Shown: positions 5,219 through 58,385 of the stretch, in pieces
Position numbering within the stretch: the first letter of the stretch is position 1
Layout: the number at the start of each line of letters is the position of its first letter
From: Candidatus Micrarchaeota archaeon
GTDB lineage: Archaea > Micrarchaeota > Micrarchaeia > Anstonellales > Anstonellaceae
Reading direction: 5' to 3'
NCBI GenBank assembly: GCA_026413965.1
Contig: JAOAJY010000002.1
Span: 12,273-76,272 of the forward strand
Length of the DNA stretch: 64,000 bases
Program-made: the position numbers and the translations under genes
Notes under the pieces: model-generated
What the model saw: only the letters and a program-made list of their open reading frames with translations
Database searches by the model: none
Told to the model about the DNA's origin: nothing

Positions 5219-5295
5219 CCATGCTGCTTTTTTTTATTATCACCATTGAGGACAGACTCGCAAGGTTTTGGGCGCGAAGCAAAGCGAAAGCTTTG

Positions 5296-5407
5296 CAACG
5301 TAGGGGGCTTTTCGGATATTCTTAGCGCCCCTCAACAAACCCTTAGGTTGCATGTTGGGGGTGAGCCCTCAGGGGGCTTTCCGGTTATTCTTAGCGCCCC
5401 CTAGGGA
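5296..5407 (-). repeat. 112-nt tRNA-trailer element, copy A (directly 3' of tRNA-Ala)
   Basis: The reverse complement, TCCCTAGGGGGCGCTAAGAATAACCGGAAAGCCCCCTGAGGGCTCACCCCCAACATGCAACCTAAGGGTTTGTTGAGGGGCGCTAAGAATATCCGAAAAGCCCCCTACGTTG, matches 13176..13287 at 106 of 112 positions. It begins at the nucleotide after the tRNA discriminator. Confidence 0.9.
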
Positions 5408-5542
5408 TGGACTCGGGGGGATTGGCGGCTGTGCCAGAAATTCTGGCAAAGCTTTCGAACCCCCAGCCTCCTGCATTACGGAAGGCTGCTTTTTTCAGGC
5501 AGCCTTTGCCATGCAGGCGCGCTACCGTTGCGCCACAAGCCC
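5408..5542 (-). tRNA. tRNA-Ala(GGC) with two insertions (anticodon loop ~31 nt, T-loop 32 nt)
   Basis: Minus-strand read: GGGCTTG-TG-GCGC-AACGGTA-GCGC-G-CCTGC-ATGGCA[intron]-GCAGG-AGGCT-GGGGG-TTCGAA[32]T-CCCCC-CGAGTCC-A. A G3:U70 pair (the alanine identity element) is present, and the anticodon is GGC. Segment lengths sum to 135 nt. Confidence 0.8.
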
Positions 5543-5545
5543 AAA

Positions 5546-5770
5546 TCAAGATGGAGAGATGTAAATCACAGAGTCGCCTCGCACAAGCACTGTCCCTATG
5601 CCTCGCTTGACTTCTCCGTCCTTCAGCTGCTCTGCTTTCTCAAGAACCAAATTCATATGCACATCATAGCTGACCATGATGCCCCTAAGCTCGGTTCCGC
5701 CTTTCAGCCCCACTATCACTGTGTTGTTGAGCGCGCCATTGAGCACATCAAAAGGTCTTTTGTCAGGCAT
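5546..5770 (-). CDS. Sm-like (LSm/SmAP) RNA-binding protein
   Basis: 74 aa with Sm1/Sm2 motifs ([26 protein letters not shown]...[11 protein letters not shown]). The stop codon lies 3 nt from the 5' end of tRNA-Ala. Confidence 0.9.
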
Positions 5771-8243: not shown

Positions 8244-9425
8244 CTATATTGCCTTCAGCCTGCGCCCCACTCTCTCAAATGCCGCAAGAGCGTCCTCAAT
8301 GTCCTCTTTTTTGTGCGCTGCGGTTATCATGGTGCGTATCCGCGCCTTGTCTTTTGCCACCATGGGATAGACTATGGGCAGCGCAAACACCCCCTCCTCA
8401 AAAAGCTGCCTGGAGAATTCCTGGGCAAGCTTGCTTTCCCCAAGCATGACAGGGGTTATTGGCGTTTGGCTTTCGCCAATGTCAAAGCCAAGCTTTTTCA
8501 GCCCGCGCTTCCATTTCTTCGCGTTGCGCCAAAGCTTGCGGACAAGCCGGTCGTCTTTCTCCAAAAGCTCAATTGCTGCCTTGCAAGCCGCGACAGTGGC
8601 AGGAGGCGCAGAGCCGGACAGCAGAAAAGAGCGCGCTTTGTTCTGCAGAAAATCATAGAGAGCCTGAGAGCCTGCCACATAGCCCCCCACCACGCCGAAG
8701 GCTTTTGAGAAGGTCCCCATCTCAACCTCAATTTTTCCCTCAAGCCCAAAATGGGAGACTATGCCGCGCCCATGCTCCCCAAGCACCCCGTCGCCGTGGG
8801 CGTCATCCACATAAACAAAAGCGCCGTGGCTGTGCGCAAGCTTTTCAATCTCGTCAAGAGGGGCAATGTCGCCATCCATGGAGAATACGCCGTCGGTTAT
8901 CACCCAGATTTTCTTGTAGCCTTTTGAGCTTGCCTCTTTAAGAATCCTCTCCAAGTCCGACATGTCCTTGTGCTTGTATATTGCCCGCTCGGCTTTGGAG
9001 AGCCTCACCCCGTCAATTATGCTTCCATGGTTCAGCTCGTCTGAAATCAGCAGGTCCCCTTCCACGCCAAGCTGCGGCACTGAGCCCTGGTTGGCAGCAA
9101 AGCCTGTCTGGAAATAAAGGGCGGCTTGCGTTCTCTTGAAGCGGGCGATTGCCTTCTCAAGCTCAAGGTGCAGATCCATGGTGCCTGCTATTGCGCGCAC
9201 TGAGCCTGAGCCTGCGCCATGCGACCGGACCGCCGCAATGGCGGCTTTCTTGAGGGCCTTGTGCTCAGAAAGCCCAAGGTAGTTGTTGGAGCAAAACATT
9301 ATGACGTCCTTCCCATCCACATTGCATCTTGGCCTGCTCCCTCCTGCAAGCCTCCTGAGCTTCCAGTCCAGCCCCTTTTCCCTAAGGGAATTCACCTCTG
9401 ACTCAAGGTATGCGTCAAGATTCAT
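8244..9425 (-). CDS. PLP-dependent alpha-oxoamine synthase (2-amino-3-ketobutyrate CoA ligase / 8-amino-7-oxononanoate synthase family)
   Basis: SNNYLGL, DELNHGSIIDG, DDAHG and GTFSKAFG (PLP-binding Lys) motifs. The start is set at the internal ATG (MNLDAYLESE). Confidence 0.85.
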   Translation of the reverse strand: MNLDAYLESEVNSLREKGLDWKLRRLAGGSRPRCNVDGKDVIMFCSNNYLGLSEHKALKKAAIAAVRSHGAGSGSVRAIAGTMDLHLELEKAIARFKRTQAALYFQTGFAANQGSVPQLGVEGDLLISDELNHGSIIDGVRLSKAERAIYKHKDMSDLERILKEASSKGYKKIWVITDGVFSMDGDIAPLDEIEKLAHSHGAFVYVDDAHGDGVLGEHGRGIVSHFGLEGKIEVEMGTFSKAFGVVGGYVAGSQALYDFLQNKARSFLLSGSAPPATVAACKAAIELLEKDDRLVRKLWRNAKKWKRGLKKLGFDIGESQTPITPVMLGESKLAQEFSRQLFEEGVFALPIVYPMVAKDKARIRTMITAAHKKEDIEDALAAFERVGRRLKAI

Positions 9426-9528
9426 GCTACACCTCTGCAGACACATCAGCAGCAAGATTAAAACGCCTATCGGCATCGGCAAGCAGCTTTGCCTAAATAT
9501 TTAAACTGCTCGCGGCAGAAATTTTGCG

Positions 9529-10323
9529 GTGCATATGCTCCATTTCATAAGGTTTTTTTCAGGCGGAGGCAAGCCGACCATCCTTTTCCGCAGCGCAGAG
9601 GGGCTGGGAGGGCATGAGCTTGAGGCAGGAAAGCGCCACAGGCTTGCCTTTTCAGACAAGCGCGCGTGCGTGGGATTCCGCTCGCCCTCTTCCCTTGCCC
9701 CCTGCCCCAACCACGCGGTCAATGTGAAGCAGTGCCCTGCATGCGCCCTGCTTGACATATCAAAAGCCTATACAGTGGGGGACTTCACAGGCCACCCTGA
9801 GCTTTATGAGAAGGCAAAGGAGGAGGAATACTGCCTTTATCTTGCTGGCTTTGGGGAGGACATAATCAAATGCGGAGTCACAAGGGCAGAAAGATTTGAG
9901 GAGCGCATGCGCGAGCAGGGGGCGGATTTTGGCTGCATGATTGCGTCCCAAAAAGGGCCTGACGGAATTTATGGCGCCGAGGCAGCAATACAGGCGAGGT
10001 TCAATTTCGCCAATTCTGTCCGCATGGAGCAGAAGATGCGGAGGCTTGATTTTGACGCGAATTTGGCAAGGGAGAACTTCAAAGCCGCGGTGGAGATGGT
10101 GAGAGGCTCAGGATGCCTGCCGGATTTCTCCCCAAAGATATTGGAGCTATCCGCATTTTACCCCAGAGCCTCTTGCCCCCAAAGAGCCGGATTTGTGGAT
10201 GGGAAAATACTTGGGGCAAAAGGCGAAATACTTCTTTTTGAGGCAGAGGGAGGAAGGCAGATGGCGGCAAACATGCGCCAGATGATTGGGCTTTTTTTTG
10301 AGCCAAAAGAGCCCTACCTGTAA
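9529..10323 (+). CDS. Hypothetical protein, possibly DUF2797-like (Cys cluster plus GIY-YIG-like core)
   Basis: 264-aa ORF with CPNHAVNVKQCPAC followed by YCLYLAGFGEDIIKCGVTRAERFEERMREQG. The family assignment is from memory only. Confidence 0.4.
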   Translation: MHMLHFIRFFSGGGKPTILFRSAEGLGGHELEAGKRHRLAFSDKRACVGFRSPSSLAPCPNHAVNVKQCPACALLDISKAYTVGDFTGHPELYEKAKEEEYCLYLAGFGEDIIKCGVTRAERFEERMREQGADFGCMIASQKGPDGIYGAEAAIQARFNFANSVRMEQKMRRLDFDANLARENFKAAVEMVRGSGCLPDFSPKILELSAFYPRASCPQRAGFVDGKILGAKGEILLFEAEGGRQMAANMRQMIGLFFEPKEPYL

Positions 10324-13071: not shown

Positions 13072-13175
13072 GGGCCCATAGTCGAACGGCATTTTCCAGA
13101 AGGCAGGTGCCCGGCAATGGTTAAGACGTCTGCTTGACGTGCAGAAGACTGGGGGTTCGATTCCTCCTGGGCCCA
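13072..13175 (+). tRNA. tRNA-Val(GAC) with a ~30-nt insertion in the D-loop
   Basis: GGGCCCA-TA-GTCG-AACGG[insert ...CCCGGCAATGG]TTA-AGAC-G-TCTGC-TTGACGT-GCAGA-AGACT-GGGGG-TTCGATT-CCTCC-TGGGCCC-A. D-loop plus insert is 39 nt and the gene totals 104 nt. Confidence 0.8.
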
Positions 13176-13287
13176 TCCCTAGGGGGCGCTAAGAATATCC
13201 CAAAAGCCCCCTGAGGGCTCACCCCCAACATGCAACCTAAGGGTTTGTTGAGGGGCACTAAGAATAACCGAAAAGCCCCCTGCGTTG
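13176..13287 (+). repeat. 112-nt tRNA-trailer element, copy B (directly 3' of tRNA-Val)
   Basis: It starts at the nucleotide after the discriminator A and matches the reverse complement of 5296..5407 at 106 of 112 positions. It contains two direct sub-repeats, AGGGG(G)C-[18-nt A-rich loop]-GCCCCCT, flanking a 44-nt core that is identical in both copies. Confidence 0.9.
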
Positions 13288-13318
13288 AAAACTTTTCCAA
13301 AATAAGAATGCAAAAAAT

Positions 13319-33893: not shown

Positions 33894-33931
33894 AAGACAA
33901 CCTCCAAAGCCGCGCCAAGAAGGCAAGCCAG

Positions 33932-34004
33932 CGCCCCGGGCAGGATTCGAACCTGCGACCTATGGATTAACAGTCCACCGCTCTACCAGCTGAGCTACCG
34001 AGGC
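33932..34004 (-). tRNA. tRNA-Asn(GUU), uninterrupted
   Basis: GCCTCGG-TA-GCTC-AGCTGGTA-GAGC-G-GTGGA-CTGTTAA-TCCAT-AGGTC-GCAGG-TTCGAAT-CCTGC-CCGGGGC-G (73 nt). Confidence 0.9.
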
Positions 34005-34005
34005 A

Positions 34006-34112
34006 TGCCACAGGCCGGATTTGAACCAGCAACACATCGGTTTCAGAGGATGCTGAGCGCAGGCTCCTGCAAATCTTCAGCCGATTGCTCTCCCAGGTTG
34101 AGCTACTGTGGC
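34006..34112 (-). tRNA. tRNA-Phe(GAA) with a 33-nt canonical (37/38) intron
   Basis: GCCACAG-TA-GCTC-AACCTGGGA-GAGC-A-ATCGG-CTGAAG[33]A-CCGAT-GTGTT-GCTGG-TTCAAAT-CCGGC-CTGTGGC-A (107 nt). Only 1 nt separates it from tRNA-Asn. Confidence 0.85.
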
Positions 34113-39524: not shown

Positions 39525-40157
39525 CTAAAGGCTTATTGCGCTGAACCCCAAGAAAGAGAATGCGAATGAGGCCAGCCATATCCGCCAGTCCCAAGCAAGG
39601 ACTTTGCTTCCGTCAAGGGGGAAAATGGGGAGCAGGTTGAACATGGCAAGCCCCATGTTTATCCACGCGCCATGCATGGTGACCGTGGCTATTATCACAT
39701 TGTCATAGAAAAGCAGGTATCCGGCAAAGAATATTCCTGCCAAAAGCCAGTTCATCGCAGGCCCTGCAAGCGAGATTATCCCATTTTCCCTTCTGCTTAT
39801 GTGCCTCATTGAGTAAAGGTAGACTGCGCCTGGGGCGATGAAGAGCGGAAGGCGGAAGCCGAATATCTGCGGCACAATTGCAAGCCCGAGGGCAAGGGCA
39901 AGCCCAAGAGGCCAAGCCCTGAATCTTGCCTTTGCCCCATATTTCAGCCCGTAGTACTTGTGCGCCATCTCATGCAAAAGAAAGCCGCTCCCTATGGTTA
40001 TTATGTAGGTTGCCATGAGGAAAATGAAGCGCGAGGGCTCAATTGACAGCCCTGCTGTGGCAAACGTGAGCGCAAGCGAGATTGCCAAAATTGAGACCAA
40101 AATCTCAAATCCTTCCTCTTTTCCAATGTGCATATGGACCATTTTCCCACCGCTCAC
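39525..40157 (-). CDS. M50-family site-2 metalloprotease
   Basis: HEMAHKY (HExxH) within a TM helix, plus NLLPIFPLDG downstream. Confidence 0.85.
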   Translation of the reverse strand: MSGGKMVHMHIGKEEGFEILVSILAISLALTFATAGLSIEPSRFIFLMATYIITIGSGFLLHEMAHKYYGLKYGAKARFRAWPLGLALALGLAIVPQIFGFRLPLFIAPGAVYLYSMRHISRRENGIISLAGPAMNWLLAGIFFAGYLLFYDNVIIATVTMHGAWINMGLAMFNLLPIFPLDGSKVLAWDWRIWLASFAFSFLGFSAISL

Positions 40158-42325
40158 CTATACATGAGATTGCCGTCTCCTTTCGCGAATTTCTTTATCT
40201 TCTCAACATAAGATTTGGTCACAGAGGGCTTGACTGCGCTGAGGGCAGACTCAAAATCCTGGGCAGTCACCTCCTCGACATCCACGCTTCGCCTTATGGC
40301 AGCCATGCCTGCCTCTCGGCAGACATTCTCCAAGTCGGCTCCTGTGTAGCCTTCAGTCTTCTTGGCTATCTCCTGCAAATCCACATCTTTTGCAAGAGGC
40401 ATGGCGCGCGTGTGTATTTTTATTATCTCCAGCCTTGCCTTCTCATCAGGCGCAGGTATCTCAATTATCCTGTCAAACCTTCCTCCTCTCATGAGGGCAG
40501 GGTCCAGTATGTCTGGCCTGTTGGTCGCGCCAATCACCACCACATTCTTCAGCCCAGTCAGCCCGTCCATCTCGGTAAGCAGGGTGTCCACCACCCTTTC
40601 AGCCACCCTGTTCCCCTCATCCACGCTTCCCCTGTAAGGGGCTATGGCATCTATCTCGTCTATGAATATCACGCAGGGCGTAGCCATCCTGGCTTTCCTG
40701 AAAATCTCGCGGACCGCCTTTTCGGACTCGCCAACCCATTTTGAGAGCACCTCTGGGCCTTTGATGGAGATGAAATTCGCCTCAGTCTCGGTAGCCACCG
40801 CCTTGGCAAAAAGCGTCTTTCCAGTTCCAGGAAGCCCTACAAGCAATATGCCTTTGACCGGCCTTATGCCAATCCTGCTGAAAACCTCGGGGTTTTTGAG
40901 CGGAAGCTCAACTGCCTCCTTGAGCTCCTTCTTGACATTCTCCAATCCGCCGATGTCTGACCACCTGACGTTGGGCTTTTCCAAGAACACCTCGCGCAAG
41001 CCTGAGGGGCGCACCTCGCGAAGGGCGTTCATGAAGTCCTCGCGCGTCACTTTCAGGTTGTCCAATATCTCTGAGGGTATGAACTCCTGCTCCAAGTCAA
41101 TCTTAGGCAATATCCTGCGCAAAACCTTCATCGCCGCCTCCTTTGTCAGCGAGGATATGTCCGCTCCTGTGTAGCCATGGGTTATTGCGGCTATCTCCTC
41201 AAGCTTCACGTCTTCTGACAATGGCATGGAGCGGGTGTGTATCTGCAGAATCTCCAGCCTCGCCGAGCGGTCAGGCACGCCCAGCTCAATCTCCCGGTCA
41301 AACCTTCCGGGCCTTCGCAATGCAGGGTCTATGGAGTTGGGGCGGTTGGTTGCGCCAATCACAATCACCTGCCCCCTTGCCTTCAGCCCGTCCATCAGCG
41401 TCAAAAGCTGGGAGACCATCCTGCGCTCAACCTCTCCTGTGACTTCTTCCCTTTTTGGGGCTATGGCGTCAATCTCATCCATGAATATTATTGAAGGCGC
41501 ATTCTCCTCAGCATCCTTGAAAATCTGCCTCATCTTCTCCTCAGACTCGCCCACGAATTTGCTCACAAGCTCAGGCCCGCCTATGTGTATGAAGTTCGCC
41601 TCTGATTCGGACGCCACTGCGCGGGCAAGCAGGGTCTTTCCTGTTCCAGGAGGCCCGTAAATGAGCACGCCTTTGGGCGCCTCTATGCCCAGCCTCTCAA
41701 AAAGCTCAGGGTGGCGCAAAGGAAGCTCCACCATCTCGCGTATCTTCTGGACCTCTTCTTTCAGCCCTCCTATGTCCTCATATGATATGGTGGCAATCTG
41801 CGCGCTTTCCTTCTCAGGCGCCTCTTTGAGCACAAGCTCAGTGTTCTCATTGACAATCACAATTCCTGCAGGCTGCACCATCGCCGCAACCAGCGGGAAA
41901 GAGGTTCCGAAAACCCCTATGAAAATGGTGTCTCCGCGCGTTATCGCCCTGCCAATCATCTTCTTTTTCACAAACTGGTCAAAGCCAGGCGAGTATTTCA
42001 TCGGCTGGGTAGGAGCAAGGACCACTTTCTTTGCCTCCTTGAGCTCTGCCTTGCGCACCACTATCTTGTCCCCCAAGCCCACTCCTGTGTTTTGCCTGAG
42101 GTAGCCGTCCATCCTTATTATGTTCAGCCCTTCGTCTTGCGGATGGGCTTGCCAGACCAGCGCCGCAGTGCTTCGCTTGCCTTTCAGCTCCACGATATCT
42201 CCGGTTGACACGTCAAGCTCCCTGCGCGCCCTGGAGTCTATCCTGACCAAGCCCCTGCCAACATCATTTTGCAAAGCCTCAGCCACTTTCAGCTCAATGC
42301 TTTTGCCTGCCATGAAAATCGCCAC
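40154..42325 (-). CDS. cdc48: Cdc48/VCP-type AAA+ ATPase
   Basis: N-terminal double-psi barrel (VRIDSRARRELDVSTGDIVELKG) and two AAA modules (GPPGTGKTLLA...DEIDAI and GLPGTGKTLFA...DEIDAI). Confidence 0.92.
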   Translation of the reverse strand: MAIFMAGKSIELKVAEALQNDVGRGLVRIDSRARRELDVSTGDIVELKGKRSTAALVWQAHPQDEGLNIIRMDGYLRQNTGVGLGDKIVVRKAELKEAKKVVLAPTQPMKYSPGFDQFVKKKMIGRAITRGDTIFIGVFGTSFPLVAAMVQPAGIVIVNENTELVLKEAPEKESAQIATISYEDIGGLKEEVQKIREMVELPLRHPELFERLGIEAPKGVLIYGPPGTGKTLLARAVASESEANFIHIGGPELVSKFVGESEEKMRQIFKDAEENAPSIIFMDEIDAIAPKREEVTGEVERRMVSQLLTLMDGLKARGQVIVIGATNRPNSIDPALRRPGRFDREIELGVPDRSARLEILQIHTRSMPLSEDVKLEEIAAITHGYTGADISSLTKEAAMKVLRRILPKIDLEQEFIPSEILDNLKVTREDFMNALREVRPSGLREVFLEKPNVRWSDIGGLENVKKELKEAVELPLKNPEVFSRIGIRPVKGILLVGLPGTGKTLFAKAVATETEANFISIKGPEVLSKWVGESEKAVREIFRKARMATPCVIFIDEIDAIAPYRGSVDEGNRVAERVVDTLLTEMDGLTGLKNVVVIGATNRPDILDPALMRGGRFDRIIEIPAPDEKARLEIIKIHTRAMPLAKDVDLQEIAKKTEGYTGADLENVCREAGMAAIRRSVDVEEVTAQDFESALSAVKPSVTKSYVEKIKKFAKGDGNLMYR

Positions 42326-42397: not shown

Positions 42398-43639
42398 CTA
42401 AAATTCGCCAAGAGTGGTCTGCTTATCCTCAGCAGGCTCGCCTTCCCAAAATATGATGATTTTTCCGTATTCCCCGTCATAGCCTGCAATCTTTCTCACC
42501 CTGCCTTCCTCCACCCGCCTCAATGCTTCGGCAACCCTTCTTCCAGCCGCTTTTTCAACCTCTTTTTTTTCGGCATGAAGCGCCGCAAGCTCGCTTCCAA
42601 ATTGCCTCACCAGCCTGAAATACATCTCATCAACTGCCTGCGATGAGGGCTTTTTGCCCAAAGCCTCGCCCAAAAGCTCCTTGAGGGGCACAAGCGACTC
42701 AAAAGGCACGGCATTCTTTGGCACAAAGCCAGCAGGCCTGTCGGCAAGCTGCTCCACCCTGCTCATCACTCCTATGGTGAGGGGCTTTTTGCAGACAGGG
42801 CATATCCCTTTGTGCTCCTTGGTCTGCTGCGGGGAAAAGCTCACCTTGCATGCCCGATGACCGTCAAAATGGTATTTCCCCTCCTCGGGGTAAAATTCAT
42901 ACGTGCAGGCAAGCTTGCGCTTCTCCTTGTGCCTGATTGCGTCATAAAGCTCGTCATAGGTTATCCTGTCAAGCTCAAACACATTGGCTTCCCTGCCTAT
43001 TTTCTCAGGCGAGTGGGAGTCGGAGTTGGAAAGAAGCTGGAGATTGTCAAGCTGGGAAAGCCTCCAATTCATGGCAGGGTCTGAGGAAAGCCCAGTCTCA
43101 ATAGCATAAATCTTCTTCTCATATTCCCCAAAGCACTCCTTTATGGAATCAAAGCCGCTTGCTGAGCCGAAAAGGGAGAACCACGGAGTCCATGCGTGGG
43201 CAGGCACAACCAGGTTTTTCTCAGAAACCTCAAACACAAGCTCGCACATCTCAGCTGCGCCCATGCCAAATGTGGGCCTTCCGTCAGCCCTCAGGTTGCC
43301 TCTCTTGCCAAGCGCCTCGTTTATCTGGGCAGCCACCTCAAGCGAAGGCGAGAGGATGACCAAGTGTATCCTTCTTGTTTTCCCATCCTGCGAGTATACG
43401 CAGGAGACTTCGGATGAAAGGCAAAAAAGCGTTTTCTCATGCTCCAAAAACCCCAAGTCCGTCTCAATGGCTTTCTTCTCAAGCTCTGAAAACCATTCAG
43501 GATGGGTGAAGTCTCCGGTCCCAACTATGCCTATGCCTTTCAGCTTTGCCCACTGCGAAAGGCTCTCCAAATCCATTGCCTGCGAGGTTGCCCTGGAGTA
43601 TTTGGAATGTATGTGCAAATCCGCCACAACTCTTGCCAA
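42398..43639 (-). CDS. Endonuclease Q-like PHP-domain nuclease (TIGR00375 family)
   Basis: N-terminus ADLHIHSKYSRATS, a central HAWTPWF, a zinc finger CPVCKKPLT, and a length of ~410 aa, as in Pyrococcus EndoQ. Confidence 0.65.
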   Translation of the reverse strand: MARVVADLHIHSKYSRATSQAMDLESLSQWAKLKGIGIVGTGDFTHPEWFSELEKKAIETDLGFLEHEKTLFCLSSEVSCVYSQDGKTRRIHLVILSPSLEVAAQINEALGKRGNLRADGRPTFGMGAAEMCELVFEVSEKNLVVPAHAWTPWFSLFGSASGFDSIKECFGEYEKKIYAIETGLSSDPAMNWRLSQLDNLQLLSNSDSHSPEKIGREANVFELDRITYDELYDAIRHKEKRKLACTYEFYPEEGKYHFDGHRACKVSFSPQQTKEHKGICPVCKKPLTIGVMSRVEQLADRPAGFVPKNAVPFESLVPLKELLGEALGKKPSSQAVDEMYFRLVRQFGSELAALHAEKKEVEKAAGRRVAEALRRVEEGRVRKIAGYDGEYGKIIIFWEGEPAEDKQTTLGEF

Positions 43640-43690
43640 TTCCCTCCCCGCCCTTTTTTTCCCGCCACAATTAAAATACTCTTATGCTTC

Positions 43691-44797
43691 ATGCAATCCA
43701 TGGCAAACCTGTTCAGGCAAATCCGCGAGGAGAGGGGGCTTTTCAAAGACGAATCCGCGCTTCTTCCTGATTTCCTTCCTGAGGAGCTTCCAGGCAGGGA
43801 AAGGGAGATGCGCGAGCTGGCGTTCTGCCTCAAGCCCGCTGCAGAGGGCAGCCAGCCGCGCCATGCTGCCTTGGTCGGCCCCCCAGGCACAGGCAAGACT
43901 TCCTCAGCAAGGCTTGTCCTCAAGCATCTTTGCGAATACAGCAGCCGCCCGCTGGCAATCTACATAAACTGCTGGGAAATCCCCTCCCGCTTCGGGGTAC
44001 TTTCAGCGATTGCCGACGCTTTGGGCGAGCCCATGCCCAGGCGCGGCATTGCAGCAGACGAGATTTTTTTGCGGGTGGTGGAGATAGCCAAGAAGGAAGG
44101 CAGGGTGCCAGTCATTGTTTTGGATGAGGCAGACAGGCTGGTCGCCCAGCCTGGAGGGGAAAAGGTGCTGTATGACTTGTGCAGGGCAGGAGAGGTGCAG
44201 TCCCTCAAAACCGGCGTGGTCGCCATAGCCAATGACGAAAGCTTCTCCGCCAAGCTTGATGCGCGAATACGCTCCTCTTTTCCGCAAAGCGTGCTTTCTT
44301 TCAAGCCTTATTCCATGCCGCAGCTCAAAGAGATTGCGGGGCAGAGGGCAAGGCTGGCTTTCTTTGAAAGCGCAGTCCATCCAGACGTGGTGCCGCTTTG
44401 CGCTGCGATAGCCTACAAAAACGGAGGGGATGCCCGCTTGGCCCTCTCCCTTCTTTTCTCTGCTGGCAAGATTGCGGAAAGGGAAAACGCCTCCTGCGTC
44501 AATGTTTCCCACGTCCGCCAGGCGCAGCCATCCGCCATACCAGCCTCCAAGACAAAGGCTGAAAGGGCGGTTTTTGGCATGGATGCTCTTGACCAGGAGA
44601 TAGTCAAGGCAGTCAAGGAGGCAGGCAAGGGCGGGATTGAGTCAGGCAGGCTCTACCAGCTGCTTTCAGGCATCGCAAAAGAGCGCGCGATAAGAGGAAG
44701 GATAAAAAGGCTTGAGGAAAGCGGAGTGCTCTCATGCCAAGACATGCAGCTCAAGCATGGCAGAAGCAGGATGATAAGGCTCAAGGAGCCCAAATAG
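43691..44797 (+). CDS. cdc6: Orc1/Cdc6 replication initiator
   Basis: LPGREREMRELAFCL, GPPGTGKTS (Walker A), VLDEADRL (Walker B) and a C-terminal winged helix. ATG candidates are at 43691 and 43700. Confidence 0.9.
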   Translation: MQSMANLFRQIREERGLFKDESALLPDFLPEELPGREREMRELAFCLKPAAEGSQPRHAALVGPPGTGKTSSARLVLKHLCEYSSRPLAIYINCWEIPSRFGVLSAIADALGEPMPRRGIAADEIFLRVVEIAKKEGRVPVIVLDEADRLVAQPGGEKVLYDLCRAGEVQSLKTGVVAIANDESFSAKLDARIRSSFPQSVLSFKPYSMPQLKEIAGQRARLAFFESAVHPDVVPLCAAIAYKNGGDARLALSLLFSAGKIAERENASCVNVSHVRQAQPSAIPASKTKAERAVFGMDALDQEIVKAVKEAGKGGIESGRLYQLLSGIAKERAIRGRIKRLEESGVLSCQDMQLKHGRSRMIRLKEPK

Positions 44798-47732: not shown

Positions 47733-47844
47733 CCTTTCCCCTCTCCCATTTTGCCATCTATTCCTTTTATTCTTGAGCCATTTTAGAGGTGCCTTCTCTT
47801 CATGTTTTACATAGATTTAAAATCTGTACCCATCTTTTTATTTC

Positions 47845-48657
47845 ATGGAGATTACAGAGGAACAAAAGATGATAGAGGTCCTTGAAAAAAAGTATTTAGA
47901 CAATTTCGAGGCTTTTTTGGTTAAAAATCGGCAATGGTTTCTTGATAGGTTAAAGTCTAAAAATGAGATTAAAAAAGATTGGTTAAAGTCATTCAAGGAA
48001 ACCTGCAGAAGAAATTACGAAAACTCGTCCGAATTGGACACAGGTGCAGAAAGAGTAATTCACAATCTATTCGGGCGATACTCTGAAGAATCTGTGTCAA
48101 AATCTAATGAGTACAAAAAATTGCTTGCGGTTAATTCTTGTCCTATAGGCTCGGATTTAATGTTTGAGACTGACGAAGCATTGATACATATCGAAGTAAA
48201 AACTGCTACGGTTTCAAATAAATCAGATTTTGGAGGTAAAATTCAAATTTCAAAAAACCAGACCACCTATTCTGTAGATAAAATTGCAACTGGTAGAGCA
48301 TACAAATTTAAGCCTTCATTGCCAACTATTTATTCAAATAATAAAATTTGTTTAACTTATGTAATTCAAATTATACATAAAAATGAGGAGGATCTACCAC
48401 AGATTATATTTTTACTTTGTATCCCTAATGGACTATTAAGTTCCATCTATAAAGATGAGAATTGTGCATTGGCAGGAAAACAAACAAAAAAGTTAAATCG
48501 CCTTGGTTCAAGAGGAGATATAAGATTTTTTTATAAGAATGCGCAACGCTTTGAAACTCTTGAAGGGAAACCAAGTAGAATAAAAGTAATTCATCCGTAC
48601 TCATACACAAAAGAATTACTTAAAAAATTTTTAGGTGTTGAGTCTATAGAACCTTAA
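47845..48657 (+). CDS. Putative type II restriction endonuclease (PD-(D/E)xK)
   Basis: GSDLMFETDEALIHIEVKTA fits D-x(n)-E-x-K. It is convergent with the methyltransferase and overlaps it by 14 nt. AT-rich codon usage. Confidence 0.55.
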   Translation: MEITEEQKMIEVLEKKYLDNFEAFLVKNRQWFLDRLKSKNEIKKDWLKSFKETCRRNYENSSELDTGAERVIHNLFGRYSEESVSKSNEYKKLLAVNSCPIGSDLMFETDEALIHIEVKTATVSNKSDFGGKIQISKNQTTYSVDKIATGRAYKFKPSLPTIYSNNKICLTYVIQIIHKNEEDLPQIIFLLCIPNGLLSSIYKDENCALAGKQTKKLNRLGSRGDIRFFYKNAQRFETLEGKPSRIKVIHPYSYTKELLKKFLGVESIEP

Positions 48658-49864
48658 TCTCAGCACATCTCTTTTGAATTATTCTAAGAAATTCTTTTTG
48701 CATTTCTATTCCAATAGACCTTCTTCCAAGCTCTTTTGCTACTTTTAATGTTGTCCCACTGCCAGCAAAAGGGTCAAACACAATATCGTTTTTGCGTGTG
48801 CAGGATAAAATTGCCCTTCTTGGAAGCTCATCTGGAAATATCGCAAAATGCGCATCCTTCAGTTTTCCAGTCGCAAACTCCCATACATCTCCAGGATTTT
48901 TGCCGTTCTCATGGGATTTTACTGTTTGCAATACATAATGCTCTTCAGTCATTATTTTGTCATATTTGTCATCGGCAATGCGCAATATCTCTTTTAGTTT
49001 GAGCCAATCGGATGGCTTCGGCAAACATCTTCCACCCCTATCTGTCCTAAACCAATGTCCTGCAGTGTCTTTATAGCCGAATATCTTATCTATTTCCTCT
49101 GTTGTTATACCGACTTTATTTTTATGCTCTTTTATGAACTTTATTATTTCAAGTTCCAAATCTGCCCCAATTTTGTGTTTTCTTTGCCGTGAGTAAAACT
49201 CCCCATATACAGAAATTCTTGCTCCAGGAGAAGCGCCCATATTGAGCCTTTTAGCATTTCTGAATTTTCCATTATATTCATTTTTTTCAAATTTCAATTC
49301 ATCCTTCATTTTTTCGTATTCTTCAATAGATAATGTAAGTGGCAAATCGCTTTTCCGCAAAAGCGGTCCTTTATGCGGAATTCTTACAGCATCCAAGTTG
49401 AAGTAATATTCTGGAGCTAAATAATTTTCAGTATTTTTCGCAAAGAAAAATATTGGCTCATAAGTATTAGCAAATCTGTCTTTTATTGACGATGGCATAG
49501 CATTTATTTTATGCCATATAATCACATTTCTTATTACCCATCCCCTATTCTGCATTTCAATTGCTAATTTAAATGGTATCATCTGCAAATTTTTCTTGAA
49601 ATACTTGTCCCCTATATTCAAAAAATAAGCTCCATTATCAGCCAAAATCCGCCTTATCTCATCCCCTAACCTTGCCATCTTTCTGATATACTCATCAGGA
49701 GTATTTTCATTTCCAATCTGACCGATTTCGCCATAATCTCGTTGCTGCCAATAAGGTGGAGATGTAACAACAAGATTTACTGATTTGTCTGGCAACTCCT
49801 TTATTCTTTCAAAAACATCTCCAAGCAAAATCAAAGGGGTTTCATCATCAGGAAGTTTTATCAT
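48644..49864 (-). CDS. Beta-class N4-cytosine/N6-adenine DNA methyltransferase (SPPY type)
   Basis: Motif IV VVTSPPYWQQRDYG lies near the N-terminus and motif I FDPFAGSGTT near the C-terminus (N6_N4_Mtase order). SPPY favours m4C. Confidence 0.85.
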   Translation of the reverse strand: MIKLPDDETPLILLGDVFERIKELPDKSVNLVVTSPPYWQQRDYGEIGQIGNENTPDEYIRKMARLGDEIRRILADNGAYFLNIGDKYFKKNLQMIPFKLAIEMQNRGWVIRNVIIWHKINAMPSSIKDRFANTYEPIFFFAKNTENYLAPEYYFNLDAVRIPHKGPLLRKSDLPLTLSIEEYEKMKDELKFEKNEYNGKFRNAKRLNMGASPGARISVYGEFYSRQRKHKIGADLELEIIKFIKEHKNKVGITTEEIDKIFGYKDTAGHWFRTDRGGRCLPKPSDWLKLKEILRIADDKYDKIMTEEHYVLQTVKSHENGKNPGDVWEFATGKLKDAHFAIFPDELPRRAILSCTRKNDIVFDPFAGSGTTLKVAKELGRRSIGIEMQKEFLRIIQKRCAEIKVL

Positions 49865-50019
49865 TTTAATACCTCTCGTCTCCTGTTTTTACGAGGTTTA
49901 TCCCAGTATGCGCTCTTACATTTTGGACATAAAATCGGATATGTTGGTTTTCGAGGTATCCATTGGTGGTAGCATCTTTCACATCTGTATCCATCAATCT
50001 CTATTTTAACTTTCGCCAT
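49861..50019 (-). CDS. 52-aa zinc-ribbon protein translationally coupled to the methyltransferase (not in the ORF track)
   Basis: The minus strand encodes MAKVKIEIDGYRCERCYHQWIPRKPTYPILCPKCKSAYWDKPRKNRRREVLK*. It has CxxC-14-CxxC and a basic tail. Its TGA stop overlaps the methyltransferase ATG (ATGA). Confidence 0.6.
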   Translation of the reverse strand: MAKVKIEIDGYRCERCYHQWIPRKPTYPILCPKCKSAYWDKPRKNRRREVLK

Positions 50020-50199
50020 ATTTTTATTTTATAATGTATTATTTATAAATTATTACTTTTACAAATATTAACTAAAGGATGTATTAAGAGTGGCAGCATT
50101 CTTTGAGGAAAGCAAGGGCAGGTAAAAGCGCAGAATAAGGAAATATTTTTCATTATTAGGTTATAAATACCTGCGCCAAATATTACCGGAGAGGTTTTT

Positions 50200-50694
50200 A
50201 TGGAAAAAAAGTCCATTGAGCAGATAACAGACGAGGCAATCTCGCAGGGCGGCTATCTTGCGCTGGTGTATTTCGATTTGCATGCCAAAAGCGCAGAGGA
50301 GGTCAAAAACCTGATGGTTGGCTTCATCGGCAAGCTCACAAAAGAGAAAGGCGTGGTTTATGCTGTTGGGGAGATTGACAAGCCCATGGAAAAGGACGGA
50401 GTCTTCTCCACATGGGCAGAGGTGAAGCTTTTGGCTGAGGACTTCGCCACTCTTGCCAGAATCTCTGCCCAGTACTCGCCAATAGGGGTGGAGATACTGC
50501 GCCCAGAAAAAGTTTCCCTCACGCTGGGGGAGGCGCAAGGCATACTGCTGGACATTTCGCAGACCTCGCAGAGCTTCACCCGCATGATAATGGAGAGAGT
50601 GCTTTCCAAGCAAGAGGCTGAGGAATACCAAAAGAAAATGCTTTCCCGCGCCGAGCTTGGGAAGAAGCTTTTGGAGAATGCCAAGAAGGAGTGA
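50200..50694 (+). CDS. Hypothetical protein upstream of the KaiC-like gene
   Basis: 164-aa ORF ending 5 nt before the KaiC-like ATG. No family was recognised. Confidence 0.5.
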   Translation: MEKKSIEQITDEAISQGGYLALVYFDLHAKSAEEVKNLMVGFIGKLTKEKGVVYAVGEIDKPMEKDGVFSTWAEVKLLAEDFATLARISAQYSPIGVEILRPEKVSLTLGEAQGILLDISQTSQSFTRMIMERVLSKQEAEEYQKKMLSRAELGKKLLENAKKE

Positions 50695-57062: not shown

Positions 57063-58289
57063 ATGCCAAATTCCGATTTTGACATCAGGCTAAAGCGCGA
57101 ATCCCGCACATCTTTGCAGGCATACCGAGACCAATCCCTCCTGCAAAGAAGGTTCGGGGACGTGGCAGTCAAGCTGTACAATCTCATAGACAGCGGAAAG
57201 ACTGCCTCTGAGCTTATGGCGCAGCTGAAAATAAGCGAAGAGCAGTTCATGCAGATACTGGAGTTCATGAACAACAACGCGATGGTCAGCGTGGTGCAGG
57301 AGGCTCCGCAAGAGGGGAAAGCCGCCGCAAGGCAAGCTCCGCCTGCAGGCTCAGGCGAGCCTGGCGGCCAGGAAGGGGAGGAGGGGCAGGAAAAGCCAGA
57401 AAGCCCTCCAGCAATATCTCCTGAAAAGCTCTCCCCGCTTGAAAAGGCAATTTTCGAAAAGTATGGAGAGATAGGCGTCAGGATATACAGCATGATAGAT
57501 GGCGAAAAGACAGCCGAGGAGATACTCAAGCAGACCGGAGTTTCTGAGGCAAAGCTTGTGGAGATTCTTGAGTTCATGGACCAGCGCGGTATAATAAAGC
57601 TGGAAAATCCAAGCGAAGCAAAGCAGCAGGAGAGCCCCTCTGGCCAAAGCCCTGAAACTGAAAGCCAGACGGAAGAGCCGGCGCTGGAGCCTCGCTTCAA
57701 GCCTCTGATTGAGGAGGAGCCAGAGGAAAAGCCCTTTGTCCCTCCAAAGCCGCCCCCCAAAAAGCCTCCTGAGAAGGAGCAGAAGCATGAGGAGGAAGTT
57801 CCTGCGGAAGAGATAGTGATGGTGGATGTCCCTTCCATAAACAAGCTTTCCATTATGCAGCATGCTCTTTTTTTCGCTGAGCTTTCCACAAAGTTTGACA
57901 AGAAAGCCAAAAGCCTGATGGATTCTGTGGATGGGCAGAAGGATTTCATAGACCTCTCCCTTTCAACAGGCCTTTCGCTTTACGAGATAGATGCGATAAT
58001 GGCTTACTTTGGGAAAAAGGGATTCCTTTCATTCAGGCAGCTTAGCCGCGAGGAGATAAAGAAAAAGTACGGAGAGGACGGGTTTGCCATCTACAAAAGG
58101 TTTGGGAGGGACGGGCTGCTTTTGTATGAGATGATTGGCAAAGAGGCTTCCTTGCGGGACATAATAGTCAAAAGCAAGCTGGACCCTGACCGAGCAATTG
58201 ACATATTGATTTTCATCCACAAAGTTTTGGGCTTGGACATACCGATAGACAGGAACGTGATTTACAGGCAGCTTGGGCTCAAAAAATGA
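57063..58289 (+). CDS. Protein with four winged-helix-like repeats joined by P/E-rich linkers
   Basis: The repeats include VKLYNLIDSGKTASELMAQLKISEEQFMQILEFMNNNAMV and VRIYSMIDGEKTAEEILKQTGVSEAKLVEILEFMDQRGII, plus two more degenerate copies. The linkers are P/E/K-rich. Confidence 0.6.
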   Translation: MPNSDFDIRLKRESRTSLQAYRDQSLLQRRFGDVAVKLYNLIDSGKTASELMAQLKISEEQFMQILEFMNNNAMVSVVQEAPQEGKAAARQAPPAGSGEPGGQEGEEGQEKPESPPAISPEKLSPLEKAIFEKYGEIGVRIYSMIDGEKTAEEILKQTGVSEAKLVEILEFMDQRGIIKLENPSEAKQQESPSGQSPETESQTEEPALEPRFKPLIEEEPEEKPFVPPKPPPKKPPEKEQKHEEEVPAEEIVMVDVPSINKLSIMQHALFFAELSTKFDKKAKSLMDSVDGQKDFIDLSLSTGLSLYEIDAIMAYFGKKGFLSFRQLSREEIKKKYGEDGFAIYKRFGRDGLLLYEMIGKEASLRDIIVKSKLDPDRAIDILIFIHKVLGLDIPIDRNVIYRQLGLKK

Positions 58290-58385
58290 GCCTCAGTTCC
58301 TCAGGCACGAAAGCATGAATCCTTCTGCTTTCAACAGGAGAAAACGCCTCAAAAAATTGAGCCTCAGTTCCTCAGGCGCGAAAGC
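58278..58385 (+). repeat. Two copies of a ~37-nt direct repeat, 70 nt apart
   Basis: CTCAAAAAATGAGCCTCAGTTCCTCAGGCACGAAAGC (58278..58314) versus CTCAAAAAATTGAGCCTCAGTTCCTCAGGCGCGAAAGC (58348..58385). Copy 2 ends in the hairpin GGCGC-GAAA-GCGCC. Confidence 0.8.

Follow-up and report, generated by a model that had tools for sequence, protein, structure and literature searches.

Tandem hairpins behind two tRNA genes

We analysed a stretch of 64,000 nt (the window) from Candidatus Micrarchaeota archaeon (family Anstonellaceae; contig JAOAJY010000002.1, positions 12,273 to 76,272), in which a 112-nt element occurs in two inverted copies: copy A at 5296-5407 on the minus strand and copy B at 13176-13287 on the plus strand. 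Both copies begin at the first base past the discriminator A of a tRNA gene. Copy B follows a tRNA-Val(GAC) gene at 13072-13175 (+), which carries a 34-nt insertion in its D-loop, scores 48.5 bits over its full length with the Rfam tRNA model and shows the anticodon loop TTGACGT when read from the sequence; the copy starts on the very next base. Copy A, from 5407 onwards, follows a tRNA-Ala(GGC) gene at 5408-5542 (-) with two introns, one in the anticodon loop (5476-5506) and the other in the T-loop (5422-5453). Neither tRNA is called by ARAGORN, because of their introns. Once the introns are removed, the exons of the tRNA-Ala equal the intron-less tRNA-Ala of a relative (L017; the loci of relatives are designated by L numbers), and ARAGORN then returns tRNA-Ala(ggc). 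No T-run separates tRNA and element, and a T4 run lies past copy B. Besides, copy B faces a convergent gene and has no gene downstream on its own strand, and the gene downstream of copy A is not conserved among relatives.

A repeat search in the window gave inverted repeat arms of 136 nt, at 5286-5421 and 13162-13297, that are 90% complementary. The end that the first-pass annotation gave to the element was too early: the similarity runs about 10-17 nt further in the 3' direction, to ~13297 and ~5286. Over the 112 nt, our alignment returned the six differences between the copies that had been listed before, at element positions 23, 26, 27, 82, 92 and 107, and no others. All six fall within the 36 loop nucleotides and 7 tail nucleotides of the 112, thus sparing the stems and the core. 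If the differences were independent, this placement would have a probability of (43/112)^6, or ~0.003; they probably are not, with 26 and 27 being adjacent and 23 and 92 belonging to a loop swap. This swap is the one already described, in which the TAACC and TATCC loop variants are exchanged between the first and second hairpins of copies A and B.

Regarding the anatomy, the two direct, G/C-clamped sub-repeats flanking a common core are present in both copies. The sub-repeat reads GGGGC-18 nt-GCCCC(C), with a spacing of 69 nt between the two of each copy. Taken as 31-nt hairpins, the sub-repeats are 90-93% identical and lie in the same orientation, and a 28-nt version occurs four times in the window at no more than 2 mismatches, compared with an expectation of 0 from 100 shuffles. 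Copy B comprises 1.5 tandem units and the 3' flank that it shares with copy A (13176-13297, +; delimited by the repeat arm and the alignment with copy A). Its hairpin 1, A-GGGGGC/18-nt loop/GCCCCC-T (13181-13212), has its stems at 13182-13187 and 13206-13211. It is followed by GAGGGCTCACCCCC (13213-13226), the sole part of the core kept across species, which is also found 3' of the hairpin in L008 and at tRNA-Val t2 of L014 and, more weakly, at the tRNA-Ala of L014. Next come the variable 3' part of the spacer, AACATGCAACCTAAGGGTTTGTTG (13227-13250), poorly conserved with respect to L008, and hairpin 2, (A)GGGGC/18-nt loop/GCCCCC-T (13251-13281), which opens a truncated second unit. The 6-7 bp attributed to both stems hold for hairpin 1, with 7 bp (A-GGGGGC/GCCCCC-T), but not for hairpin 2, with 5 clean bp.

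Copy A likewise consists of 1.5 units and the 3' flank (5286-5407, -; delimited by the repeat arm, with an orthologous locus in L008), and carries hairpin 1, GGGGGC/loop/GCCCCC, at 5372-5401 (-) and hairpin 2 at 5303-5331 (-). A third, A/T-richer hairpin, GCAAAGC-TTTC-GCTTTGC, lies directly 3' of copy A (5279-5296, -) and is kept in L008; its counterpart in copy B (13287-13297) is degenerate. The 44-nt core (13212-13255) is the same in both copies. We also considered a small open reading frame (ORF) starting at an ATG in the core (13230) and rejected it, as 3/3 in-frame differences between copies A and B are non-synonymous and L008 has no ATG at that place.

Modules in sister and more distant genomes

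Homologues were retrieved as syntenic loci of relatives by means of the neighbouring proteins, the nearest relatives being labelled Anstonellaceae. The closest one is L008, with a ThyX 79-80% identical to that of the window; the fourfold-degenerate sites of the two genomes are 43-44% identical, which is near saturation. Both share the order LSm, tRNA-Ala, element and GTTGCAAAGCTT flank. Three hairpins and two spacers make up the element of L008, which corresponds to 2.5 units of 67 nt, identical (100%) to each other. Because this sister locus holds three hairpins in 2.5 units, the sequence of the window element is best described as ~1.5 units of a ~69-nt tandem repeat, made of a G5/C5-clamped hairpin and a spacer, rather than as a fixed design of two hairpins around a core. 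The exchange between sub-repeats suggested by the first-pass annotation fits such a tandem repeat, whose number of units varies between species (1.5 here vs 2.5 in L008).

When the window and L008 were aligned, four parts appeared nearly unchanged: the left end TCCCTAGGGGGC, the C-run with TGAGGGYTCACCCCC, the next G-run and the hairpin of the 3' flank. In the 3' part of the spacer, the two sequences resemble each other only loosely. Two features that had been taken as constant do not extend beyond this genome. The A-rich loop, described as conserved, is so in this genome only, the loop of L008 being unrelated (3/19 positions identical), and the 'invariant' 44-nt core is invariant only between two recent copies, as just its first ~14 nt (GAGGGYTCACCCCC) remain across species. 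Copies within a genome are 95-100% identical, and this near-identity within genomes vs the divergence between them would fit either recent activity or homogenisation.

The element is also patchily distributed at orthologous tRNA genes. At tRNA-Val, the window has the element and L003, a locus from the same metagenome-assembled genome (MAG) as L008, has an empty site. At tRNA-Ala, the element occurs in both the window and L008, but L015 and L009 have no module there, the tRNA being directly followed by a T-run. Since the orthologous tRNA-Val of the sister MAG carries no element, copy B is a secondary copy of the tRNA-Ala array, including ~15 nt of its 3' flank, and copy A is the ancestral locus.

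In more distant relatives, related modules begin right after tRNA-Ala or tRNA-Val, with one exception in L004. The clamp noted in the two window copies is conserved throughout: every related Anstonellaceae module has the form A-G(4-6)...C(4-6)-T with matched run lengths. The tRNA-Ala module of L014 and L007 reads TTAGGGGC-loop-CCCC..AGGTCACCCC. Downstream of tRNA-Val, the same two loci contain two modules with partial tRNA-Val copies between them. In L014, the 3' terminus of tRNA-Val is present in three copies: the genuine one, an exact one and one that is 81% identical (a 21-nt repeat). The L014 module closest to that of the window (CATAGGGGGC-loop-GTCCCCCTAAGGGTTTCACCCCC) lies exactly between terminus copies 2 and 3, and the 21-nt terminus copy occupies the position of the variable 3' spacer part of the window. 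In L017 and L019, a 205-nt insert rich in hairpins, opening with TCCCCTAAACCCCGAGGGGGC, comes after a tRNA-Ala without intron; past this insert lies an exact partial tRNA-Ala of 14+36 nt that still holds a 51-nt intron. The intron-less gene of L017 lies at 9221-9330, and the partial copy (tRNA positions ~26-73, with the 51-nt anticodon intron) at 9508-9586. L018, a 168-kb sister contig from another sample, breaks off exactly within the T-arm of this tRNA-Ala, which hints at population heterogeneity at this site.

The exception concerns L004, which has one module past tRNA-Val and a second one ahead of the promoter of tRNA-Val, where 16-nt direct repeats enclose it. This is the only module that we found off a tRNA 3' end. 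It measures 66 nt and is located at 1780-1870 (also in L005 and L006), between the start of the pantoate kinase gene and the tRNA-Val promoter; the direct repeat at its flanks, TCTAAACCCATTTAAA, includes a TATA-like box. A near-identical left end and hairpin (CCCTAAACCCCGRAGGGGGC..GCCCCCTCC) recur at two loci, namely after the tRNA-Ala of L017 and upstream of the tRNA-Val promoter of L004. Runs of T5-T7 are found 3' of the L014, L004 and L017 modules. The exact or decayed tRNA 3' duplicates that bracket modules in the relatives constitute a footprint left by recombination into tRNA genes.

Of the 15 A-G4-7...C4-7-T hairpins in 151.5 kb of non-redundant clade DNA, 12 belong to tRNA-flank modules, and a covariance model built from the modules matched tRNA trailers only. 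Exact-pattern scans with the sub-repeat through genome, metagenome and viral contigs gave a single chance match, in the coding sequence of an ABC-ATPase from a Bacteriovoracaceae bacterium. Viral contigs returned nothing for the core, for a generalised motif of the hairpin plus GAGGG..CACCCC or for CCCTAGGGGGC..CCCCCTNAGGG, and a single chance match, in a high-GC phage gene, for the L017-type left end.

Two further observations concern tRNA genes of these relatives. The two-intron form of tRNA-Ala is also found in L015, while L008 has the anticodon intron only and L017 and L009 are intron-less. Besides, the archaeal RNase P RNA (L014 7837-8138, +; L017 2568-2811, -) adjoins a tRNA gene stretched to ~180 nt by introns (L017 2283-2462), whose trailer opens with TCCTATTCCCTTAGCG and recalls the left end of the module.

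Origin and possible role of the module

The element is a lineage-restricted, tandem hairpin module anchored at the tRNA terminus and not a new class of structured RNA. Most likely, it belongs to an Anstonellaceae (Micrarchaeota, DPANN archaea) family of tiny insertions without coding capacity at the ends of tRNA genes, rather than being a folded regulatory RNA. As for its history, we propose with moderate confidence that it is a miniature module, non-coding and tied to the 3' termini of tRNAs, that multiplied by unequal exchange, gave rise to a copy at a second tRNA and is passively maintained as a pre-tRNA trailer. We favour a recombination-linked, duplicative module for four reasons: it is strictly tied to tRNA termini, it is present at some orthologous tRNAs and missing from others, its copies are nearly identical within genomes despite the near-saturated neutral divergence between them, and tRNA-fragment duplications bracket related modules in relatives.

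The basic module extends from the base past the discriminator through TCCC..TA and a free-loop hairpin clamped by A-G5/C5-T up to GAGGGYTCACCCCC. It would enter by recombination at the 3' part of a tRNA gene, an event that rebuilds the tRNA and leaves a decaying duplicate of the terminus downstream; such entry is apparent in the relatives, and the window copies may have arrived in the same way. Unequal exchange or slippage between the hairpin repeats would then produce tandem units with shuffled loop variants (1.5 units here, 2.5 in the sister), and the tRNA-Ala array, together with ~15 nt of 3' flank, would have been copied to the tRNA-Val terminus. Having no protein-coding capacity, the module would need a recombinase encoded elsewhere, and the clamp and foot sequences may serve as recognition targets of this trans-acting mobilising machinery. 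Its persistence could be explained if it is transcribed as the 3' trailer of the pre-tRNA and lost when the tRNA 3' end is trimmed, which presumably makes it tolerable.

Several points weigh against this proposal. Pfam searches with ~50 window ORFs returned no integrase, transposase, other recombinase or Cas domain. In genome, metagenome and viral collections, nothing beyond chance matches was obtained with the sub-repeat, the core or generalised motifs, phage and plasmid records had no match by blastn in distant mode, and no full-length parent element was found in these searches. The relatives were sampled at the Ala and Val loci only. By shuffling, the window core is not significantly similar to the tRNA-Ala 3' end (p=0.25), and the similarity of the corresponding cores to a tRNA 3' end is marginal in L008 (p=0.04) and L004u (p=0.017); we accordingly set aside the core as a decayed tRNA-Ala 3' end in the window, leaving it as a weak suggestion carried over from the relatives. 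Although synonymous sites are near saturation, conservation between the window and L008 amounts to ~95% in the stems, the foot motif GAGGGYTCACCCCC and the 3' flank hairpin, which could equally reflect a function at the host level. Moreover, 50-70 bp is, to our knowledge, far below the size of any integrative element, and we know of no established mechanism for moving so small a piece.

A bolder version, which we regard as doubtful, is that non-autonomous hairpin elements of 50-70 bp are active in DPANN archaea, where they would home to tRNA 3' termini, rebuild the tRNA end, displace the old end downstream and thereby be a direct source of the tRNA fragments, and possibly of the non-canonical introns, that abound in these lineages, with the clamp hairpin acting as the site of a predicted recombinase.

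The main rival, possible if on the unlikely side, holds that the element is a structured 3' trailer with a function for the host, be it a cis-acting barrier to read-through, a terminator or insulator, a 3'-processing or stability element, or a stable small RNA derived from the trailer. Transcription should indeed enter the element, as no T-run precedes it and T-runs come after the modules. The placement of the six differences between copies A and B, all outside the stems and the core, is as expected for a functional structure, and so is the ~95% conservation of stems, GAGGGYTCACCCCC and 3' flank hairpin in the window and L008, whose fourfold sites have changed by 56-57%. The consensus fold retains the hairpin in 6/6 aligned modules: RNAalifold kept both the clamp hairpin and a small GGG/CCC hairpin.

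The folding of the individual copies weighs against such a role. The two local hairpins of the first-pass annotation are not the preferred fold. In the minimum free energy (MFE) structure of each copy, the first G-run pairs with the last C-run, and the centre forms a CCCCCAACA/UGUUG(A)GGGG hairpin. The MFE values of the two copies are -38.7 and -41.0 kcal/mol (z = -1.7 and -1.6 vs dinucleotide shuffles), and the folding energy is unremarkable for the composition. The fold with two local hairpins is 1.4-3.8 kcal/mol worse, with ensemble pair probabilities of 0.2 for hairpin 1 and 0.01-0.15 for hairpin 2. We found no covariation, because the clamp stems never vary (0 double changes across the 7 clamp pairs of the six modules); and in Rfam 15 nothing matched the element even at E<=10, with only tRNAs scoring. 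What is conserved is the sequence of the clamp and the feet rather than a demonstrable RNA pairing. Besides, a functional trailer does not sit well with the orthologous tRNAs of close relatives that have no element (Val in L003, Ala in L015 and L009), with the three other tRNAs of the window that also have none, with the complete replacement of the loop between sister species or with the variable number of units. Nor are the tRNA fragment duplications that bracket related modules a product of processing signals.

Another explanation, which we consider quite unlikely, is that the element is the relic of a transposon with hairpin ends, either a derivative of the IS200/IS605 family comparable to miniature inverted-repeat transposable elements (MITEs) and palindrome-associated transposable elements (PATEs), or something similar to repetitive extragenic palindromes (REPs) and bacterial interspersed mosaic elements (BIMEs). 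The two hairpins would be the left and right subterminal ones, targeted by a Y1 transposase on single-stranded DNA, and insertion would take place 3' of a short sequence such as CCA. The ends of IS200/IS605 elements carry similar hairpins in direct orientation, and the element has two near-identical hairpins of the same orientation around a short core; in addition, both window copies directly follow ...CCA, the clamp is conserved with free loops, and the element is multi-copy and non-coding. However, none of the window ORFs scanned with Pfam matched a Y1 transposase, RAYT or TnpB, and 18-nt loops are atypical of the family. L008 has three evenly spaced hairpins and L014, L004 and L017 have single-hairpin modules, and therefore the 'two ends' are merely tandem units. 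Finally, the modules of relatives carry 16-50-nt flanking duplications, which peel-and-paste transposition does not make. A hairpin-end transposon is a mechanistic variant of the mobile interpretation.

The first-pass annotation also implied an RNA switch, in which alternative pairings of the G- and C-runs toggle the trailer between two regulatory structures. Mutually exclusive pairings do exist in silico, with competing folds only 1.4-3.8 kcal/mol apart and alternating G- and C-runs. We nevertheless find a switch very improbable: the energy is no better than that of shuffles, there is no Rfam match, no conserved loop resembles a ligand pocket, different species share neither the loops nor most of the core, and at copy B, with its convergent gene, there is nothing downstream to regulate. 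A mini-array of the CRISPR (clustered regularly interspaced short palindromic repeats) type, suggested by a 31-nt palindromic repeat, a 38-nt spacer, a second repeat and a 67-69-nt period that are all in the CRISPR range, is effectively refuted by 'spacers' that are identical (100%) within L008 and between copies A and B and have no match in viral contigs, by an inverted conservation in which the first 14 spacer nucleotides are kept across species and the repeat interior is identical to L008 at 3/19 positions, and by the lack of any Cas domain in ~50 window ORFs and of any Rfam CRISPR-DR match on the element.

Other candidates were tried and rejected. Reading the sequence, we found no consensus boxes for a C/D box or H/ACA small RNA (sRNA), a K-turn, a bulge-helix-bulge motif, a tRNA-like minihelix, an origin recognition box (ORB) or origin repeat, or an integron attC site. 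A T-arm-like pairing AGCCC/GGGCU is replaced in L008 by UUCCC/GGGUU. The layout of a type III toxin-antitoxin system, with repeats, a hairpin and a gene, was also discarded, given that copy B has no downstream gene on the same strand and the gene past copy A is not conserved in relatives.

If the module is indeed mobile, tRNA genes of Micrarchaeota would be hot spots for an undescribed class of very small insertions that leave behind hairpins and partial tRNA copies. This would bear on the origin of disrupted archaeal tRNA genes, with their multiple introns, fragments and split genes, and would provide concrete loci for testing a Sugahara-type integration model in DPANN genomes. The element provides a concrete entry point to the question of how DPANN tRNA genes gain fragments and possibly introns. 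At a practical level, the partial tRNA copies seen in relatives are of the kind that inflates tRNA counts, and such repeats break assemblies, as in L018, which ends inside the tRNA-Ala T-arm. Should the element instead be a functional trailer, it would represent a lineage-specific structured trailer of pre-tRNAs.

Further features of the window and comparison with known systems

The neighbours of the element in the window are housekeeping genes (PurL/PurQ, LSm, ThyX, VIT1, an aminotransferase, glycosyltransferases, pantoate kinase and DnaG), and the ORFs adjoining copy A had no match in Pfam, PHROGs or NCBIfam. The gene for LSm, an Sm-like protein (5546-5770, -), ends 3 nt ahead of tRNA-Ala. 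This linkage is kept in all the relatives that we fetched (L008, L009, L014, L015, L016 and L017), which suggests that LSm and tRNA-Ala are co-transcribed. Among the window tRNAs without the element, tRNA-Phe(GAA), which contains a 33-nt intron, precedes tRNA-Asn(GTT) by a single base, the pair occupying 33931-34004 (-) and 34006-34112 (-); neither trailer contains a hairpin module.

Elsewhere in the window, a sharp low-GC island at 47800-50200 (30-37% vs ~52%) holds an N6/N4 DNA methylase gene (48644-49864, -) and a 270-aa ORF without family match. With ScpA/ScpB and a KaiC-like ATPase at its flanks, the island probably represents a restriction-modification pair gained by horizontal transfer. 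A 34-nt direct repeat at 58281-58314 and 58352-58385 (94% identical, 71 nt apart, with the palindrome GAGCCTCAGTTCCTCAGGC) is located at the end of an ORF without family match. An Orc1/Cdc6 homologue is encoded at 43502-44797 (+), and in the ~850 nt upstream of it (42.3-43.5 kb checked) we saw neither an AT-rich unwinding element nor clear origin-recognition repeats. The direct repeats at 40334-40571 and 41159-41396, 825 nt apart and 71% identical, correspond to the two AAA domains of a CDC48-type ATPase (40154-42325, -).

Regarding known systems, the element resembles CRISPR mini-arrays or solitary units in its ~31-nt palindromic repeats, its ~36-38-nt spacer and its period, and differs from them in its identical spacers, its inverted conservation, and the absence of cas genes from the window and of a leader. 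With the attC sites of integrons, which are recognised by their structure and not by their sequence, it shares a tandem arrangement of hairpin sites whose feet are conserved and whose central parts vary greatly; in contrast to them, it comes with neither an IntI gene nor cassette ORFs, its spacers measure only 36 nt, and no RYYYAAC/GTTRRRY boxes can be read in its sequence. Like the sRNAs linked to tRNAs (the tRNA-C/D box dicistrons of Nanoarchaeum and RNAs of the mascRNA type), it lies directly 3' of a tRNA with no terminator between the two, and would for this reason be released by tRNA 3'-end processing. Unlike them, it has no C/D or H/ACA boxes, no Rfam match and no conservation at orthologous tRNAs.

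Regarding the MITEs and PATEs derived from IS200/IS605 and the REP/BIME elements, the likeness is closer: the element is short, non-coding and multi-copy, its direct hairpins have conserved stems and free loops, and it evolves in concert within a genome. The differences are its bond to tRNA 3' termini, its fixed tandem period of 67-69 nt, the 16-50-nt flanking duplications in relatives and the fact that no cognate transposase was seen in the window.

Finally, integration of plasmids and viruses into archaeal tRNA genes leaves a rebuilt tRNA and a direct repeat, and the two att copies may differ in an intron (PMC3293823); partial tRNA genes resulting from integration events are common in archaeal genomes (PMC9897764). 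In contrast to the attL/attR footprints of integrases of the SSV and pNOB8 types (Sugahara et al. 2012, PMC3293823), the module carries no integrase or cargo, its inserts measure only ~50-200 nt, it has a conserved G5/C5-clamped hairpin beside the tRNA and undergoes tandem amplification, and the window copies have no significant duplicate of the tRNA terminus. As in those footprints, the module is positioned at the tRNA 3' end, the modules of relatives have the genuine tRNA 3' part on one side and its duplicate, exact or decayed, on the other, and one relative, L017, combines an intron-less rebuilt tRNA with an intron-bearing displaced copy.

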